Shown: positions 755-64,000 of the stretch, piece by piece
Numbering within the stretch: the stretch's first letter is position 1
Layout: each line of letters starts with the position of its first letter
IMG/VR virus record: IMGVR_UViG_3300032038_000003
Location: 146,315-210,314 of that record
Length of the DNA stretch: 64,000 nucleotides
Direction: 5' to 3' (one strand)
DNA from: a virus
Lineage: Duplodnaviria > Caudoviricetes
Notes under the pieces: model-generated
Database searches by the model: none
Seen by the model: the letters and a program-made list of their open reading frames with translations, nothing else
What the model was told of the DNA's origin: nothing
Translations under genes and position numbers: made by a program

Positions 755-3700
755 CTAACTATAATTAAGATTCTTAATCTGGTAATCTACTTCTGATCTG
801 GTATCCTGTCTAATATTAAAGTCAGATGAATCACCATTTATACCATTCATATAAGAGACTTGGACACTATTTAAACCGTTACTGCCTAATATTCTGGTTA
901 ATTGTGCCTGTACTCTTCTTGGGTCATTACGAGTTCTTATTTTTGGAATAGGGATATTAACTTGGTCAGCTTTCCGTTTGTTATCAGTCCAGATATCAAA
1001 TTCACCAGGATCTAATCCGTTAGCATTGACCATCTTAATCTTAACATCTTCAAGATCTGTATCTTCTTGCCATCCTACCCAATTTTCATCTGGTAATGCA
1101 TGATTTTTAAAGTATTCTGTAAGCTCTGGTTTTTCGTCAACATGCATACCCCAAGAAGCTTGTAATGCCCGTCGTAAATAACTTGGAGCTATTCTAAGTA
1201 TCTTTTGCTTTTCTTCTTCTGGTGCTTCTACTAACTTAGAATAATATTGTCTTTCTTTCTTAGGTAAAGCAGCCATTATATTTCTTACATCGTCACCAGG
1301 ATCATATCCGTACATAGTACGTTCTGCGGCCTGTTTATAAGAAATAGCTTTAATAGCATTTAATGGCAATTTTTCTACTTTTCTGTCATTAGATATCTCA
1401 GCAAGTTCTTTATTAATAGCTCTTACAACTTCTTTTTTGGATTGCCCTTTTTCTTCATATTTAGGCTCTCCATACTTAAAATTATAATTACCACGATGCT
1501 TGAAATCAAGTTTAACAAGGCGTTTGTAGTTGTTTAATTCTTGCTGTCTAGCCTTATTATCTTCGCCTTTTTGCTCTTGTTTTTCGATATATGCATCAAC
1601 ATCAAAGTGATCTTTCTTTTTAGCGAGTTCCTTATATTGATTGTAAAGTTTAGTGTTTTTAACATATTTAAGGGTATCAATATAAGTATTCATTTCTTCT
1701 TGCTGTCTACGTCTCTTAGGTCTCCATTCACGATCCTTATTAGAACCAAGATGATGTATAGTAGTTCCTATAGCTGGCACAGCAGCACCAAATATGGTAG
1801 CGATCATTTTACCGTATGGGCCTTTACCCATCATGCTACCAAGAAATGCACCGCCAACAATAGCACCAATTGGATGTTGAGAAGACAAGTCTTCTACAGT
1901 AGGAACTACGAAATCTCTAATAGGGTGATTCCAAGATTTGAAATCTTTATTATACACTTCACGTTTACGGTATTGTTCATAAGGACTTCTAATCTGGAAG
2001 AACTTATCACCTATAAACGGTAATTTAGATGCACTATGAGTTAAGGTCTCCATCATAGAACCAAAAGCTATATCTCCTTTGGAATATCTTGCATGGATTC
2101 CAGCTGGAGAATCATCGGTTTCTTTCTCTTTAGCAAGACCTTTATCAAGCATACGTCTATTAAGATTAGTACCTTTTGCATTAACGATAGCCCTAATTGA
2201 CTGTGTAGAGTCTTTATTATATTTGTTACGTTCATCAGCATCATATTGAATGGTAATACGTTGACCAGGCTTGAGATACTTTCTCAATTCGTCATTTGCA
2301 GCTTGGTTCATTGTTTTACCAGTTCTAACTGTACGCTCTCTACCAGTAGCCTTATTAATTTCTTTCTTTTCTTTAACGGTAGGCTTATATAACGTACTAT
2401 TGGACTCTGAAACATTAATGCCAGCAAATTTAATAGCGTGTTCTTTACCATATTCGTTAACAATAATGGTATTATTATCTATTATCTCTTTAACGGTAAC
2501 CTTTTCTGATTTTAAGTTTGCTGTCTTAAACTTATAATCATATACTCTTAAAGGTTCTTTTTGCTCCTGCATACGCTCACGAGCAGCTTTGACTTCTTTC
2601 TTTTCTGCTTCTGATAAATGAGCATGAGAAACTTGAGCAGATATATCTTTAAACTCTTGAGAGTACGGAGCAGTATCTGCGAGTATTTTGTATTTCTCTA
2701 CAAGAGAATATAAATCTCCTCTTGAGATTTCGCCTGTCTGTAAACCAGTATATATATCTTTCTTGGCATCATTAAGATTTTGGATACTTGAGCGTAAATC
2801 TTTTTTATTAAATCTTACTCTTGCTTTATATATATCATCTGGGTTTTCTTTATCATAATAATAAACATAACCTCTGCCCTTGGTATTATTTAAAGCATAT
2901 AAATCATAATTCATTTCGTAATAATCTTGATTACGAATATTATGACCTTGCTGGAGTCTTTTGAATTCGTCAGAACTTACGCCTCGAATATTAATCAAAG
3001 ACTCTCCAGTGCGTGAATGATAATCTTTTATTCTTGCATCTACAAGACCAGATATATCATGCTGAGCGTCATTAAATTTAATTCTTGAACCCAATAAAAC
3101 ATCTGCATCTCTAAAATGGTCTAATATTTTAGAGACAAACTCTTCTACTTGATTAAGATTTTGGATATCATATTGGTCGTTAGTAATTTCTTTAGGACGC
3201 TTATCACGTTTTAATGATTTGATATCTTCTTCTTGCTGATACGTTAAGTTAGTATCTTGATGCAAGAAATGTCTTACATGTGCAGAACGTGAGTTGCCAA
3301 TCATGCTGGCACTAATATTAAAGCTGAAATCTATATTGTTTAATCGCTCATATCCTTCACCTGGGAGCCTCTCTTCGCCATTCATGATTTTAGAATAAGG
3401 ATCGCCGTGTAAATAATCAGTAAAGTAATTAGATCCTGGCATCCAAGTAGGCATAGTATTCCTGATAGGATTTAAAAACTTTGTATCGTTATCTCTTTTA
3501 TGAATGAAACGACGAGAGATTTCCGAAAGTTCTCCGCCTAAACCACCAAGGTTCTGATTCCAAAATGATCTGTTCGCAGAATAAGCATAACTTGATGTCT
3601 CTACTTTAGTAGAGCCAATGTTCTGCTCGCCAGTAAACATAGATTGAATCAAGAAACCTTTTAAACCATAGATATTAGCAATATCGTTAAACTCTTCTCC

Positions 3701-6700
3701 GATATTCCATAAAATATCATTATCGGTTTTTTGTGATTCTTCTTCTTGATATCCTTTATCATATTCGTTTATACTAATACGCTGATTAGTACCATAAATC
3801 TTATTTAAAGAATAATGTTTAATCTCTTCGTTGACTTTATATAAGTTAAGATTTTCTGGCACGTCAACAACAGATATGCTACCAGATGGAGTAGTATAAA
3901 CATCTAATGCAGTATCGTAACGATTATAATCTCTATAAGGTAATGTAGATGATTGTAATGGGCTTGCATATTCTTTTGCTTTAGTAAATAATCTTTGCTG
4001 AAAATTCTCTGCATCTGAATATGGTAATGTTCTTACAACATCTAACTTACCAGGAGTATTAGGATTATAAGCAACGGTATATGTTTTTAAGGCATTATCG
4101 TACAACGGTGTTTGTTTAAACTGAGTAAATGTATTATTAGTTTGTGGTGTACGAGCCTCTGTTAATGTTTTAGCTGTAAATAAGTCTAACAATCTTTGAT
4201 TAGCAGCTTTATGATATTGTTCTTGAGTCTTTGTATTAATTTGATTGAATGTGTCTGTATCTATAAAAGCTTTTTCTAATGTCTTTAAAATATCGTTTAT
4301 AAAGCCAGTTTTTGCTTTTGCAAAACTAGACTGACCAGTCATTAATAACTGGCTAGGTTTTTCATCTTCTGGATTAACAGTTTTTAAAGTACCGTCTGGA
4401 TTCCAATATTCTTTGTGCATCTTATGACGGTATACCTGTCCTACAGTACCAGATACTAATGGACCAATCAAAGGAATATTTTCGCCTTTGGCAGCAGTTT
4501 CTGCATATGGTCTATCGTTATAATGCTTTTTATCCCAATGATTCGGGTCAGTAATAAAATGTCTGATAGGAGCTAATGGACTTACTAAATTAGGATACCA
4601 AGTATTTTGATAATATTCTTTACGAGAACCATACATGGTATCGCTATATTTAACATCAGCCTCTATACGACGATATATATTAGGTCTCCAGTGGTCAATT
4701 TTTGCACCAGTAAAAGGAGTATTAGAAACAGACCAGTAACGATTTTTACGTACTGGATCGTATCCTTTTTCGATATATTCCTTACGTTCTTCTGCTGTTT
4801 GACCAAGACCTAATTGATATATTCCAGGTAACTCATTAAACTGATCAGATCCTGGTGTCATTTCTTGAAGATACTTAAATATCTTTGTAAATCCTAATGT
4901 GTCACCAAGTTTGTGTGCTCCTATATCAATAGGTTTCACAACGTCTCGCATTAATGTTTTACCAAGAGTATCAGTTTTACCTTGTTCACGTTCCTCTTTA
5001 CTAGTAAATAATGGCTCAGAGAAATAGTTAATCATACCAGGAATCTGAGTTAACATGAATACTGGCAATGCTCTTTTTACTAATAAATTTCCAACTAATG
5101 CTCCAGTAGAACGTTTAGATTTAAGACTCAATCCCAATCCAATACTAGCAAGACCAGAATCGAGTACATTAAATACATCGTACAATGTAGAAGATTTTTC
5201 ATTAAAGTATTTCCCCATTGTACCATCTGCTTTGAAACCAGAAAAACGCTGTCCAAAAAATCCTTTAAGATCATCTACGAATTTTTCTTGATTTTTATCT
5301 TTTGTATCTTGTATTAAATCGCTAAAGTTAATACCTTGTTTTGTTAATATTATGTTTTTCCCATGTACTTTTGTACCATTTTTAGTGATAAAATCATCAA
5401 AGCCTTTACCAAATGCCATGTTATATGATTTATCTCTAATATTAGATGCAGCTTCTTCGTAAGTAGCATATTGAAAATTGTCTGTTTTAAATAAATTAGA
5501 ATGAGAAACTTTATCTAATAAATCATCAAAAGTATTGTCTGGGTTAAATGAATCACCTATATTTCCAGCACCACCATCACTAAGGCTTACAAATTCTTGA
5601 TGTCCAATATCTAATATATCACCAATTCTTTTTCTAATTTTTTGGCTAAATGTTAAGTTAGCAAAAGGAATGTCTTCTCTAACATCTTTATTAAGATGAT
5701 AGTTAGCCATTTGACGCATTGTTTCTACGTGATGAGGCATTTTAAATTTTTTATCTACATCTGAAATATCCCAAGCATCAAAACCAGAACCTATAAACTC
5801 TTTAGTACCTCCAGTACCAAGAGCATAAAGGTCTCCATCTGCAAATAATAAATGAAATGTTTCGTCAAAATTATTAAATCTTTTCTGAAGAGCGGTATTT
5901 ATATCATCACCTATTCTACCGCCTTTACCAGAAATATATGGTGAATAATTACCAACACCATTGATTAATGCAAATGAAGTATCTCTACGGTTAAACATAT
6001 TGTCTAACGGAGTGACTTTAATAGCACTATCAATAGGGTTAAATCCTAATACTGGTAAACCAAAATCTTTTCTTATAGAGTTAGTAAAGAATCTTAAGGC
6101 ATCTTCGCCCATCATATAGTTAATAATATTGTCGCCTTTTGCATTGATGTTTAATGCTGGATCTATAATAAATTTCTTCCAGACATCATCAAAGTTACCT
6201 AATGCACCTATTTTATCGCCTTGCTGATAAAGATAATTCGTATTAGTAAGAAAGCCTGTCATAGTTTGTAATACAGTTCTTTCGTCTTTACCAACGGTTT
6301 CGTTAAGATTTATTTTAAATTCATCAAAGAGTCTCTTTTCGTTAAAGCCTTCTTTAAAAATTAATTTCTTTTCTTTTTTGTCAATACCTTCGAAGATATC
6401 TCCAAAGGTGAGCGTCTTATATCCAGTGTGTTTAATCTGATACTGAGCTGCTTCATCAGTTAATGAGATACGACGAATAAAACGCTCCATTAAATCGGCA
6501 CTAACACTATTTCCAGACTGATTTAATCCAGCTCTGTCAATACTACGCATAATATCATTCATTTCGTATGTGTGTTTAATAAAGCTAGATTCTTTAATAC
6601 TGGCATTACGATGTTTAATTCTTTTTCGTCCATCTTCCATTAAAGCATTTGTACGTTCTTTTATAGTACGTTTAATAACATCTTTTGGTTGACCATCCAT

Positions 6701-16858: not shown

Positions 16859-16987
16859 TTATACTTTGGTTACATAATCAAGCGAGATCCAACCTACGCC
16901 CGATTTTAACTTGCCCCATTTAGTAGCACCCTTTCCATCAGCTTCTTCAACTATAGTATAAACGTTAGGTTCGATAAAACCACCTAT
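16859..16987 (-). pseudogene. Start-less remnant of an endolysin C-terminal SH3-like cell-wall-binding domain
   Basis: Reads IGGFIEPNVYTIVEEADGKGATKWGKLKSGVGWISLDYVTKV*; in-frame stop just upstream; no start codon or RBS. Confidence 0.7.
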
Positions 16988-20029: not shown

Positions 20030-20635
20030 TTATTTTTTATTATTTTTAATAGCTTCTTCTCTTCGTTTTATCTTGATCATGTCGTCAAGTTCATTGGCTT
20101 TTTCGTCAGAGATTACTTCTAGTTCGATGACATGTTCATAACCAGCTTTCGCATGAGAGTTACCACCCATCTTTTTATATGGAAGATAAATACTATCTAA
20201 TGTAGCTCTTTCCTTTAAGGTGATAAATCCACGTTCTGTTATTTTATCTGTCATATAGACGATTTTATCATGAGCCATTCCGCTGAGGGTATCACATACA
20301 TTATTTTGATTATCAAAGATTTGTTGAAGAGTTTTTTCAACACGTTCGTCATTGTCTTTAAGTTGATCAAACGTTTTAAGTAATTGCTGAAAATCTTCAG
20401 AATGTACTTTTATCATTCCTTGAATATTTTTTTCATGCTTCTCAAAACGTTCAGCTCCAGTTTTTTCACGAGCGTCTAATCCTTCTTGCATTTCTTTATG
20501 TAATTGTTCAAATCGTTCATCGATCTTTTTATCTTCTTTAGTGTCTTTTCTTTGTATTAAGAACTGAAGAAAAGAGAACAACGCTCCTGAGCCAAGAATC
20601 GTTAAAAGAATCTGTAAAGCATTAGTTTGATCCAT
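20030..20635 (-). CDS. Membrane-anchored coiled-coil protein (holin-associated type)
   Basis: N-terminal TM helix, coiled coil, RGFIT..YLPYKKMGGNSH motif. Confidence 0.5.
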   Translation of the reverse strand: MDQTNALQILLTILGSGALFSFLQFLIQRKDTKEDKKIDERFEQLHKEMQEGLDAREKTGAERFEKHEKNIQGMIKVHSEDFQQLLKTFDQLKDNDERVEKTLQQIFDNQNNVCDTLSGMAHDKIVYMTDKITERGFITLKERATLDSIYLPYKKMGGNSHAKAGYEHVIELEVISDEKANELDDMIKIKRREEAIKNNKK

Positions 20636-21840
20636 TAATTATCTTCTCCTTCTTTCATACCTTCTCCGCCACCTTCCATGCCTTCTCCACTACCCCACAT
20701 AACTTGTGCGAAGTGATTTAAAGTACTTACGAGAATACCCGCAAGCTGGCTCTCTGAGATAAACTTGTTTGGTGATAAATTATCTCCGTTTGCGTCGGTA
20801 GGATCGTAAGAACTTGCATCTGGACCATCTACAGCAGCAATAGCATCTAATACCATCTGCTCAAATTCAGAGGCTGTCTTTTCTGACTGATTGACTTCTA
20901 CTCTGATTTGTTTTGTGTGACCAGTAGAATCAGCAGAATCATTTACTACAGTTGTAACTGTAGTATCTGATGTACTGCCAGAATATAAATTAATTAAACT
21001 ATGAAGGTTAACAAATACCCATTCATCGTTGCCATCATCGCTTTTAATACCAGTTTGACAGAAAAATACGAGTCCAATATCGCCAGCATGGTCGTTTGTA
21101 GAAATTGTAGCTGTTGCAGTTATAGGATTATGTGTATCTGGATCTTCTCCGACTGTAAAAGTAATTTTTCCAGCTGTAATATCAGCAGCTGTTAAAGTAA
21201 CGGTTTTAACATCTTTAAAGAACGAAATACTTAAAATTGTTTTGCTATTCACAACAGCGTTAACTAATGTTGAAACAGCAGCCGATGTCATTAAATTAGT
21301 ATCTGTTCCAGTAAATGTTTCGTCCAGAGAAGCATCGTCTGAGTGAATTGCTTGAGATGCAACATAATTTGTCATATAAGTCGTAAAGATACTTAATGAC
21401 AATTCTTGTGGAATTGAGCTGGCATTTGTTACCCATATAGAACCAGTTTTTGCTGTATGAGTAACTGGTGTTGCTTGTCCATCTGTAATTGTACAATCAG
21501 CTGTCACAAAATAGAAACTGTTAGGCTTTAAAACGTCAGCAGTGATATTACTAGAAATCATATTGAATTTACTAGCATCGCCACCGAATAATGGAGTATC
21601 ACCAAGATAGCCCACGCCACCTTTGCCAAAAAGGTAAAAAGTATATGGATTGTGCCGATGCGTGGTTGAATCTGCTAAACTATCATATATGGCTTTACAG
21701 GCTGCTTCGGTAGCTCCTGTCAGTATTCGAAATTGAAATTTAGCCATTTTGAATACCTCCTTTTTATTTTTCGATACAAATAATTTGTTATCAAATGTTG
21801 TAAGAATTTTTGAGTCGGAGGTTACTATAATTTTGTTCAT
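20635..21840 (-). CDS. Virion structural protein; second in-frame start at 21747
   Basis: 401-aa ORF with AGGAGG RBS and late-promoter motif upstream; internal AAGGAGGT before MAKF. Confidence 0.55.
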   Translation of the reverse strand: MNKIIVTSDSKILTTFDNKLFVSKNKKEVFKMAKFQFRILTGATEAACKAIYDSLADSTTHRHNPYTFYLFGKGGVGYLGDTPLFGGDASKFNMISSNITADVLKPNSFYFVTADCTITDGQATPVTHTAKTGSIWVTNASSIPQELSLSIFTTYMTNYVASQAIHSDDASLDETFTGTDTNLMTSAAVSTLVNAVVNSKTILSISFFKDVKTVTLTAADITAGKITFTVGEDPDTHNPITATATISTNDHAGDIGLVFFCQTGIKSDDGNDEWVFVNLHSLINLYSGSTSDTTVTTVVNDSADSTGHTKQIRVEVNQSEKTASEFEQMVLDAIAAVDGPDASSYDPTDANGDNLSPNKFISESQLAGILVSTLNHFAQVMWGSGEGMEGGGEGMKEGEDN

Positions 21841-21870: not shown

Positions 21871-21899
21871 GTAAAATATTTAAATATGCTGATAAAAAT

Positions 21900-21930
21900 C
21901 GCCTTTACTAATAATATAAAAGTAAAGGCG
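21900..21930 (-). terminator. 10-bp stem-loop downstream of the Mtd-like gene (terminator and/or DGR hairpin)
   Basis: cgcctttact-N11-agtaaaggcg followed by ATTTTT on the minus strand. Confidence 0.6.
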
Positions 21931-21979
21931 TTTAGTTCTATAAATATTTTAAATGATAAAAACTTAAGTTGCAAGCAAG

Positions 21980-23665
21980 TTATTTTGTCAATATTCGGCT
22001 CGACCCACGAGAACCAGAGCCGTCACTCACATAAGAACGGCGGTTAAACGAACTACGCGAACGCGACCCGCAACTAGCACCGCTAGACCAGCTACCCCCA
22101 GCACGAAGCACATATGGGTCTCCGTATTCTTGTCCAAATGAAGCATTCTGGTCAGTTGTCGTCCATCCATTTCCTCCAACAGAAGAAGTTTCTTGTAACC
22201 ATTGCCATAAATATCCACACATTTCTTCACATCCAATGGCAGATATCATACGTCTATTATCAGTATCTTTATGACCACCAACAGTACTAGCATCAGCTGT
22301 TCCAGCAATACTTGTTTTTTCGTTAGAACCCAGTGCAGCACTTGTAAATTCGTTATCATATAATAACTTTTTACCAACCATACGCATATCTTCGGCATGG
22401 TTATATGGTTGTCTGGACACCGTATGAGTCTGATTATATTTAGAACGTGTATTATGTCCAGTACCAGACTGTAAATAGATATCTATTACTTTATTAATGT
22501 CTTTATCATAAACCATTCCATCTTCAAATAAAGTATCTGGATACCAGTTAAGACAGAATACAGATTCTGGTAAAATATCTCCAGCTTGAAATCCAGAAAG
22601 AGGATGGTCTACAGTTACTACATCATATTGAGATTGTGTAGTAACAGTTTTTACTTTTTTATTATAAAAGGCATAAAAATCTGGATCTTTTTCTTGTCTA
22701 TAAGATTTAATTAAATAATCTGTATTTGTGGTATATCCAGAAGAAGCTGGTGCTGGAGCTGTCATAGTAACATTAACTCCAACATCTACACATAAAGTGT
22801 GTAATCTACCTATTTTATTACCAGTAGATTGATAGTCTGTGTAAGCTGAAATATCTCCATTATTGTCTATATATAAATAATAATCAGCTCCGCCTTGTGT
22901 AATATAACTGGTTAAATCTATATGAGTATCTGTAATATAAGATTTAATAGAGCCATTAGGAAGTTTAATATTAGTACCAGCTTTGATAATAACACCACGT
23001 TTATTTTCTGGATCAAATCTAAGCCATCTATCTATTAAAGCATTTCCAGGTACTTTTTCAGAAGTTCCACTACTACCAGAACCAGATGTATCTATTTGAG
23101 AAATTAAATTGTCTACTTCTGTTTTTGTATAGTAACTAGTTAATGTATTTTGAAAACTTGTAGTAGATACATAATTAATTAAAGCCGCATTAAGAGCAGT
23201 TAATGTCACATAATCAGACAAATTAATTTTTGTATCACCAATAAGTTCCCATCCTTCAGTTGTACCATCTAAATTAATGTATTCGTCTTTAATATTCCTA
23301 GTTTTAGAAGTAGTACTTGGCACAAGATAAATATGGTTAGTCGAAATATCAGTAGTTGGCAATTCGTTTACTAACAAAAAGCCACCAGATGTTTGCTGAT
23401 TAATTAAAGTATTAACCTCGGTTTTTGAATATGTTTCTGTTTTTAAATAATAATTTATTAAATTATTAACAGTATTAGTAATAAAACCAGAATCGTTATT
23501 TAAATCACTGGTTTTTGTAGGCTGTGACATATTATCGATTTTAGTAAGTAAAGTATTAATTTCAGACTGAGTATACTGAATTGTCTGCATATCTTGTTTA
23601 ACTTTGTCGAGCATTGCTTCGATTTCAGTAGAGGTATGTTTAGATATAAATTTTTCTTCAGCCAT
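21980..23665 (-). CDS. Tail fibre adhesin with a C-terminal Mtd-like C-type-lectin domain; DGR target protein
   Basis: RRMISAIGCEEMCGYLWQW..LRAGGSWSSGASCGSRSRSSFNRRSYVSDGSGSRG resembles BPP-1 Mtd-family C-termini; N-terminal fibre repeats YTKTEVDNLI. Confidence 0.8.
   Translation of the reverse strand: MAEEKFISKHTSTEIEAMLDKVKQDMQTIQYTQSEINTLLTKIDNMSQPTKTSDLNNDSGFITNTVNNLINYYLKTETYSKTEVNTLINQQTSGGFLLVNELPTTDISTNHIYLVPSTTSKTRNIKDEYINLDGTTEGWELIGDTKINLSDYVTLTALNAALINYVSTTSFQNTLTSYYTKTEVDNLISQIDTSGSGSSGTSEKVPGNALIDRWLRFDPENKRGVIIKAGTNIKLPNGSIKSYITDTHIDLTSYITQGGADYYLYIDNNGDISAYTDYQSTGNKIGRLHTLCVDVGVNVTMTAPAPASSGYTTNTDYLIKSYRQEKDPDFYAFYNKKVKTVTTQSQYDVVTVDHPLSGFQAGDILPESVFCLNWYPDTLFEDGMVYDKDINKVIDIYLQSGTGHNTRSKYNQTHTVSRQPYNHAEDMRMVGKKLLYDNEFTSAALGSNEKTSIAGTADASTVGGHKDTDNRRMISAIGCEEMCGYLWQWLQETSSVGGNGWTTTDQNASFGQEYGDPYVLRAGGSWSSGASCGSRSRSSFNRRSYVSDGSGSRGSSRILTK
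21995..22111 (-). other. DGR variable region (VR)
   Basis: Only 11 A in 117 coding nt; positions that are Asn in the usual template consensus carry NNC/NNT codons. Confidence 0.75.
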
Positions 23666-63445: not shown

Positions 63446-64000
63446 ATGGCTAAAGAGTTAACAAAGATGAGCGAGAGAGAGATTTTCGACAGAATGAATG
63501 CACTTGCACACAAATACGATCCGTTCATACAGTACATTGACGACTACAAGCAGTTTAAAACTGCTGAAATTAAGAACAAGGAAGCCAGTGAAGAATGGGA
63601 TACTATCTGCACATATATTGGTGTAGAGAATGCAAGTATCCGTACATATGCAGAGGATATTGATTGCATCAAGGAGAACTTAGGATATCTTTTTGCAGAG
63701 TCAAAAATGTTTAGTAAGAATAAGGAGGATAAGGATATGATGAACATGACAGTTAAGGAACTTAAGGCAGTTGCAAAGGAAGTAGGAGTAAAGGGATACT
63801 CTAAGATGAACAAGGCTGATCTGGTAGCAGCTATCCAGTTCTTCACCAATGAAGAGCGTAAGGAGTCTGAGGCAGTAGTAGCTCCTGTTATCGAGGAGCC
63901 TGTAGTTGAGGAGCCTGTAGTGGAAACAGTAGTAGAGGAAAAGGAAAATAAGGAGGTTTCTATGAAAGAGAAGTACATGGATGCAAAGTGGGATAAGTTG
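63446..64000 (+). CDS. Early protein containing a Rho N-terminal-like (HeH) nucleic-acid-binding domain (runs off the window)
   Basis: Not in the ORF track; ATG 63446 after GGAGAAGGAG; MTVKELKAVAKEVGVKGYSKMNKADLVAAI at ~63746-63835. Confidence 0.75.
   Translation, partial: MAKELTKMSEREIFDRMNALAHKYDPFIQYIDDYKQFKTAEIKNKEASEEWDTICTYIGVENASIRTYAEDIDCIKENLGYLFAESKMFSKNKEDKDMMNMTVKELKAVAKEVGVKGYSKMNKADLVAAIQFFTNEERKESEAVVAPVIEEPVVEEPVVETVVEEKENKEVSMKEKYMDAKWDKL

Follow-up and report, generated by a model that had tools for sequence, protein, structure and literature searches.

How can the receptor-binding tip of a phage carry the variable region (VR) of a diversity-generating retroelement (DGR) when the genome holds neither a template repeat (TR) nor a reverse transcriptase (RT), and is such a tip still being renewed? 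The question is raised by a cattle-gut phage (genome G000), of which we analysed a window of 64,000 nt at the end of a record of 210,314 bp. A first-pass annotation made from the letters of this window had described a diversified tip of the BPP-1 type and had proposed three explanations for the missing partners: a cassette acting remotely, a cassette supplied in trans by the host or by another phage, or a cassette that was lost.

The target gene (21980..23665, minus strand, like the other elements of the fibre locus and the second deletion described below), defined by its ORF and translation, encodes a protein of 561 aa with the C-terminus ...GSRGSSRILTK. Residues 1-200 are fibre-type N-terminal modules, also found in neighbouring genes, and residues ~200-561 form an Mtd-like receptor-binding domain with the VR at its end. 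In PHROGs, the protein belongs to phrog_11262, tail protein (E 3e-30), and a weak FGE-sulfatase match of Pfam covers residues 472-543. An AlphaFold model of residues 200-561, calculated from 47 homologues, has a pLDDT of 78 and a pTM of 0.81, the VR itself having a pLDDT below 50. When this model is compared to the PDB with Foldseek, Mtd alone is matched, through the structures 1YU0-1YU4 (E 2e-10, probability 1.0, TM 0.5), over ~346 alignment columns with 21% identity. A search of the PDB with the family profile (hmmsearch) also retrieves Mtd (E 1e-19) and aligns the A-poor stretch of the target on Mtd's own VR. By fold and by profile, the target is thus a homologue of the Bordetella phage Mtd, with the VR at its C-terminal end. 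Downstream, a fibre-module gene of 401 aa (20635..21840), assigned by synteny and BLAST, follows the target after 139 nt. No Avd match was obtained for the 94-aa gene that precedes the target.

The A-poor character of the end of the gene, on which the first-pass annotation was based, is confirmed. The 117 nt preceding the final ILTK codons and the stop contain 11 A (9%), vs. 35% A over the whole target gene. Four other 117-nt windows of the 210-kb genome are equally A-poor, but all four are antisense to Lys/Glu-rich genes; they were ruled out as additional VRs, and the VR is therefore the sole A-depleted stretch on a coding strand, genome-wide. The VR itself (22004..22111) consists of 108 nt that match the TR of sister genomes. 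Compared to the TR of one of them, L019, it is mismatched at 23 of the 31 A sites and at 8 of the 77 non-A sites (Fisher p 2.5e-10); with the TR of a more distant relative, L003, the counts are 21/29 and 10/79. Nine codons had been singled out as derivable from AAY. Eight of them indeed lie at AAY codons of the relatives' TRs, whereas the AGT of GCT-AGT-TGC sits at TCT. The segment 22004-22111 is a BPP-1-type DGR VR in the receptor-binding tip, as had been proposed.

At the 14 positions where the TRs of L019 and L003 differ, the window VR is a mosaic, and four further non-A positions agree with neither TR; hence, its last template was a variant other than those found. In line with this, the window VR shows 8-10 non-A mismatches to any TR found, vs. 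0-4 for intact relatives compared to their own TR. In both L019 and L003, TR/VR homology stops ~24 nt before the target stop codon. The tail of the gene that follows (21983..22003) has no TR homology, is IMH-like and ends with ...CCGAATATTGACAAAA ahead of the stop codon. Alleles with and without an RT have all retained it, with 1-3 SNPs among them, and from its position we infer that it functions as the IMH.

Variation among relatives is found at the same place in the proteins. The cluster, formed at 90% identity, that contains the window's protein has 24 members, most of them at least 90% identical and the rest 74-89%, and their differences are mainly at ~15 VR codons. Besides the VR, a patch at ~22160-22180 (~GGNGWTTTD), located ~50 nt upstream of it and outside any TR, is hypervariable among near-identical alleles. 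This patch is probably a loop of the binding face next to the VR, whose variety would come from ordinary mutation together with selection and recombination.

Could the partners of the VR lie elsewhere in the genome? The last 166 nt of the record (210149-210314; window 63835-64000) are identical to its first 208 nt (1-208) minus one 42-nt repeat unit, and the genome is therefore closed. The 42-nt unit belongs to a coding tandem repeat of the EEPVV type, and the difference of one such unit between the two ends explains why a closed assembly received a linear classification. Over the whole 210,314 bp, a BLAST search for a second VR copy returned only the VR itself and a 14-nt chance match. An adenine-tolerant ungapped scan of the whole genome found no TR, the best non-self placement having 30 non-A mismatches in 121 nt. 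Similarly, no RT was detected in the whole genome, either with Pfam RVT_1 in six frames (no match at E<=10) or by tblastn with the RTs of L003 and L009 (no match at E<=1), and no Avd family was matched among the proteins scanned. The absence of a second copy and of an RT, noted before for the window, thus holds for the entire genome. A TR and RT placed remotely in this same genome, one of the explanations first considered, is ruled out. The phage cannot re-diversify its own tip alone. Lacking two defining features of a DGR, the locus is a DGR target left behind rather than a DGR.

Complete versions of the locus exist in close relatives. Six sister contigs of up to 212.7 kb (L019, L020, L021, L031, L032, and L033), each encoding a member of the protein cluster, have both TR and RT. 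Their order is the target, a TR starting 39 nt after its stop codon, a DGR-type RT of 338 aa, and then the homologue of ORF 20635..21840; synteny is identical to that of the window save for the TR-RT segment. The RT matches RVT_1 (E 5e-17) and has the motifs IGNFASQ and YCDD. No Avd family was flagged among the called genes of the RT-bearing loci. In IMG/VR, four more distant relatives (L003, L004, L005, and L009) have targets 52-77% identical to that of the window, followed by a TR and an RT of 337-338 aa. Their VR/TR pairs show 15-22 A-site mismatches and 2-4 others, as counted in a 120-nt window reaching slightly beyond the TR. A copy differing from the VR only at adenines, for which a search had been suggested, was not found: the bias towards A sites is strong against the TRs of L019 and L003, but none of the TRs found is the exact template.

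Other arrangements occur among the relatives. In L003, the whole target-TR-RT module (1358-3782) is flanked on both sides by homologues (72-85% aa identity) of the genes found at 98400-104164 of G000. In G000, these genes (98.4-104.2 kb) are ~65 kb from the fibre locus and are ~54 nt apart, without the module; the Mtd-DGR module has thus changed its genomic site in one piece. L007, L008, and L010 have Mtd-like genes, 48-50% identical, with A-poor, GC-rich C-termini; these records are fragments (37-53% complete), and no TR or RT was found within 5-10 kb downstream. Finally, a close relative, L030 (JGI 3300041722, 5684-6048), has neither the TR-RT pair nor the junction of the window; a 60-aa fibre-repeat ORF follows its target, which makes it an independent RT-less arrangement.

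How the window came to lack the cassette can be read at the junction. In BLAST alignments with L019 and L021, positions 11689-12948 of L019 (1,260 nt) are missing from the window, the two flanking alignments overlapping by 7 nt. In detail, the sequence of the window is ...GACAAAATAA up to the breakpoint and CTTGCTTGCAACTTAA... beyond it, and the junction sequence of RT-less contigs includes ...ACAAAATAACTTGCTTGC... A microhomology, ATAACT, is present at the deletion junction (21978-21983). A relic of the RT remains (21964..21981): the codons AAC TTG CTT GCA ACT TAA, that is NLLAT followed by a stop codon, overlap the stop codon of the target. The relic, like the ~33 nt that follow it, corresponds to the 3' end of the RT gene of L003 and its downstream flank, whereas RTs of the L019 type end with NLLAS. 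No RT-bearing genome with the L003-type end (NLLAT) was found at this locus, so the direct progenitor is unseen. The intact sisters and the RT relic together indicate that the RT-less state was derived by deletion, in agreement with the earlier suggestion that the cassette was lost. Hence the VR is, in all likelihood, the orphan of a true DGR that lost its TR and RT through a 1.26-kb deletion.

The hairpin reported in the first-pass annotation is also explained by the sisters. It is present 50 nt after the target stop codon (21900..21930), with a 10-bp stem, an 11-nt loop, and a T run at ~21893-21898 (DNA fold z -3.2), and resembles an intrinsic terminator. However, in L019, L021, and L031-33 it comes after the stop codon of the RT; it is the operon terminator, and its role as a DGR target hairpin is ruled out. 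No GC-rich hairpin with a GRNA loop was found after the VR in the window or in the RT-bearing L019 (z -0.17), the sole hairpin there in the window being this terminator with its AT-rich loop.

A second clean deletion is visible at window 16862-16981, where positions 17922-18856 of L019 (935 nt) are missing. They comprise a 30-aa ORF and the gene for a 319-aa Amidase_2 lysin except for its last 40 codons, which remain in the window with 100% protein identity. The genome is 2,347 nt shorter than its 212,661-nt sister, and the deletions of 1,260 and 935 nt account for 2,195 nt of this difference.

These observations suggest the following course of events. An RT-bearing ancestor would have written the VR by adenine-mutagenic retrohoming. 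A single deletion of 1.26 kb, from the target stop codon to the 3' end of the RT gene, then removed the TR and left the RT with five codons and a stop. The deletion probably took place between two ATAACT hexamers, which points to a microhomology mechanism. The VR has since been an orphan, its 3' targeting tail intact.

Is the orphan VR a fossil, or is it still replaced? The answer comes from other RT-less contigs, every comparison being made between assembled contigs. The identical junction is found in L023, L024, L025, L026, L027, L028, L029, and L034, from at least eight samples and from three pipelines (ENA MEGAHIT, Logan, and JGI assemblies); the sources of the RT-less contigs include ERZ27256903, ERZ27291665, ERZ27291679, SRR32586392, SRR32996390, SRR30832678, and SRR29188446. 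In these contigs, which encode members of the protein cluster, a gap of 135-140 nt follows the target. One of them, L024, is an independent ENA contig that encodes the window's protein and is identical to the window over 9.7 kb. In IMG/VR, the deletion junction was not found. L022, the lone metagenome match to the junction, was discarded as a chance 23-mer with otherwise no similarity to the window.

Seven distinct VRs sit on this one junction, and only L027 and L028 share theirs. In pairwise comparisons, the seven RT-less alleles differ at 59% of the TR-adenine sites and at 8.6% of the other VR sites. In the flanks, they show 1-5.5% differences over 690 nt upstream and 0-2 differences in 143 nt downstream, the latter count being made without L027, whose downstream part is recombinant. 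Among the VR columns, 28/31 A-site columns vary in DNA vs. 21/77 non-A columns; inter-strain variation is thus concentrated where the first-pass annotation had predicted it. L029 and L034 differ at 19/31 A sites, at 1/77 non-A sites, at 0/143 positions downstream and at 3/600 in the next gene. Five RT-less alleles have an L019-type TR backbone (0-3 non-A mismatches), yet their relic is of the L003 type. Provided that all these junctions descend from one event, the VRs reached their place after the cassette had gone, and one deletion with seven VRs means that orphan VRs are still being replaced. From these comparisons, the tip seems to be still renewed with help from related phages.

By which route would new VRs reach the RT-less genomes? 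The likeliest ones are retrohoming in trans, with RT-bearing relatives as donors in the same infected cell, and short-patch recombination with such relatives; the contig data fit both. As RT and TR are nowhere in the genome, any supply in trans would have to come from a different co-infecting virus. New VRs would thus be brought by RT-bearing relatives during co-infection.

The somewhat likelier reading, to which we give a probability of about 0.42, is that this widespread RT-less and TR-less haplotype of a jumbo-phage fibre gene keeps a functional target, rewritten in trans when a relative with a retroelement infects the same cell; phages without the cassette would then free-ride on a shared good maintained by those that have it. 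Tentatively, the RT and the TR RNA of an RT-bearing relative would rewrite the orphan VR through its intact 3' tail. Such a process would change the segment covered by the TR and nothing at the junction, in agreement with the pattern observed: seven VRs on one junction, changes concentrated at TR-adenine sites, and L029 and L034 differing almost nowhere else in the VR or downstream of it. It would also be consistent with the five VRs whose backbone is of a type other than that of the relic. Possible donors exist, since RT-bearing relatives with near-identical target gene bodies were found. Moreover, according to PMC5758913, which cites earlier experiments, a plasmid-borne avd-TR-brt of BPP-1 works in trans, and the IMH with adjacent sequence suffices for targeting (PMC3240598). 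On the other hand, short-homology recombination does occur at this locus, the hypervariable patch at ~22160-22180 indicates that selection and recombination can yield local diversity, and the GC-rich GRNA hairpin is missing after the VR. Supply by another phage, one half of the trans explanation first considered, gains support from the population data.

In the second reading, which we regard as possible but doubtful, the orphan VR itself is frozen, and its variety among contigs stems from exchange with RT-bearing relatives, by homologous recombination or gene conversion, through a single crossover in the conserved tail of ~24 nt. Identity profiles among the alleles are indeed mosaic, and non-A variants at VR positions 5, 17, and 82 are common to some of them. 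In L027 and L028, the sequence switches to the L019-type downstream haplotype inside the terminator stem, ~60 nt after the target stop codon, through a crossover that spans ~15 nt of homology. In addition, the gene bodies of alleles with and without an RT do not form separate groups but intermingle in a tree of low resolution. However, each of the seven VRs would require a crossover within ~24 nt, and the differences end sharply at the 3' end of the VR. Beyond the tail, homology resumes only past the RT, and an ordinary double crossover would therefore be expected to bring the RT back instead of preserving the deletion. Backbone counts do not separate recombination from trans retrohoming, because the RT-bearing L031-33 themselves show 4 non-A mismatches between the VR and their own TR; for the same reason, the use of backbone decay as a clock since the last homing was dropped.

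The remainder beside these two routes falls to a recurrent, identical deletion or to something else. A DGR of the host chromosome, or of some unrelated element, is a very unlikely donor of TR and RT: DGRs can have distant targets (PMC5758913), but the VR backbone, searched as a 26-nt pattern with N at adenine sites, is absent from IMG/VR and from 185,579 species-representative prokaryote (GTDB) genomes, a set from which the host itself may be missing. The host half of the trans explanation is not supported by this result. Least probable of all is that the deletion is an assembly artefact and that the real phage has TR and RT, since VR/TR repeats can disturb assembly graphs but the junction lies outside the repeat, joins the stop codon to the 3' end of the RT gene through a microhomology of no more than 6 nt, is seen again in at least eight samples and with three pipelines, and was produced by pipelines that assembled the RT-bearing sisters intact.

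The two main routes have different implications. If renewal occurs by retrohoming in trans, a phage that loses the cassette need not be left with a fixed tropism, and the evolution of the phage's host range would depend on which co-infecting relatives carry the retroelement; hypermutation capacity would then be a good shared between viruses. If renewal occurs by recombination, the locus would be a clean natural case of DGR decay combined with very short-patch exchange at a receptor-binding tip. In the literature searched, we found no report of orphan, RT-less VRs or of trans-diversification between phages. DGR surveys find elements through an RT and a TR/VR pair, and a target that has lost both is thus invisible to them.

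BPP-1 is a 42-kb temperate phage. The phage described here has a genome of 210 kb, and its TR and RT are gone. The two systems are nevertheless alike in their target: in fold and in profile, all of Mtd is covered by the last ~360 residues of the target, and both proteins have the VR at the C-terminus; here, in contrast, the Mtd-like domain is fused to a fibre N-terminus of 200 aa. The likeness extends to the sister genomes, which have a TR, an RT with IGxxxSQ and YxDD motifs, and TR/VR differences that fall at adenines, apart from the few non-A mismatches given above. They are ordinary DGRs apart from their target-TR-RT gene order, which differs from that of BPP-1, and from the lack of a recognised Avd, no such family being flagged on called genes, and of a target hairpin. 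In BPP-1, the target signal is a GC-rich hairpin/cruciform with a 4-nt GRNA loop located 4-34 bp after the VR (PMC3240598), and no such element follows the VR here.

DGRs with non-adjacent or remote targets, for example in Treponema denticola, are known from the survey of Wu et al., in which remote targets are not expected for phage DGRs (PMC5758913). As in these systems, the VR of the window is away from a TR and RT, and homing would need factors acting in trans and signals 3' of the target. However, the genomes of those systems also encode the RT and TR, which are nowhere in the present one. A further comparison is with the cassettes of L003, L004, L005, and L009, which have homologous Mtd-like targets; the L003 RT has a 3' end that matches the relic of the window, even if the L003 cassette occupies a genomic place other than the fibre locus considered here. 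Set beside these systems, the locus is an orphan whose history can be read base by base, from a deletion, an RT relic, and intact sisters.
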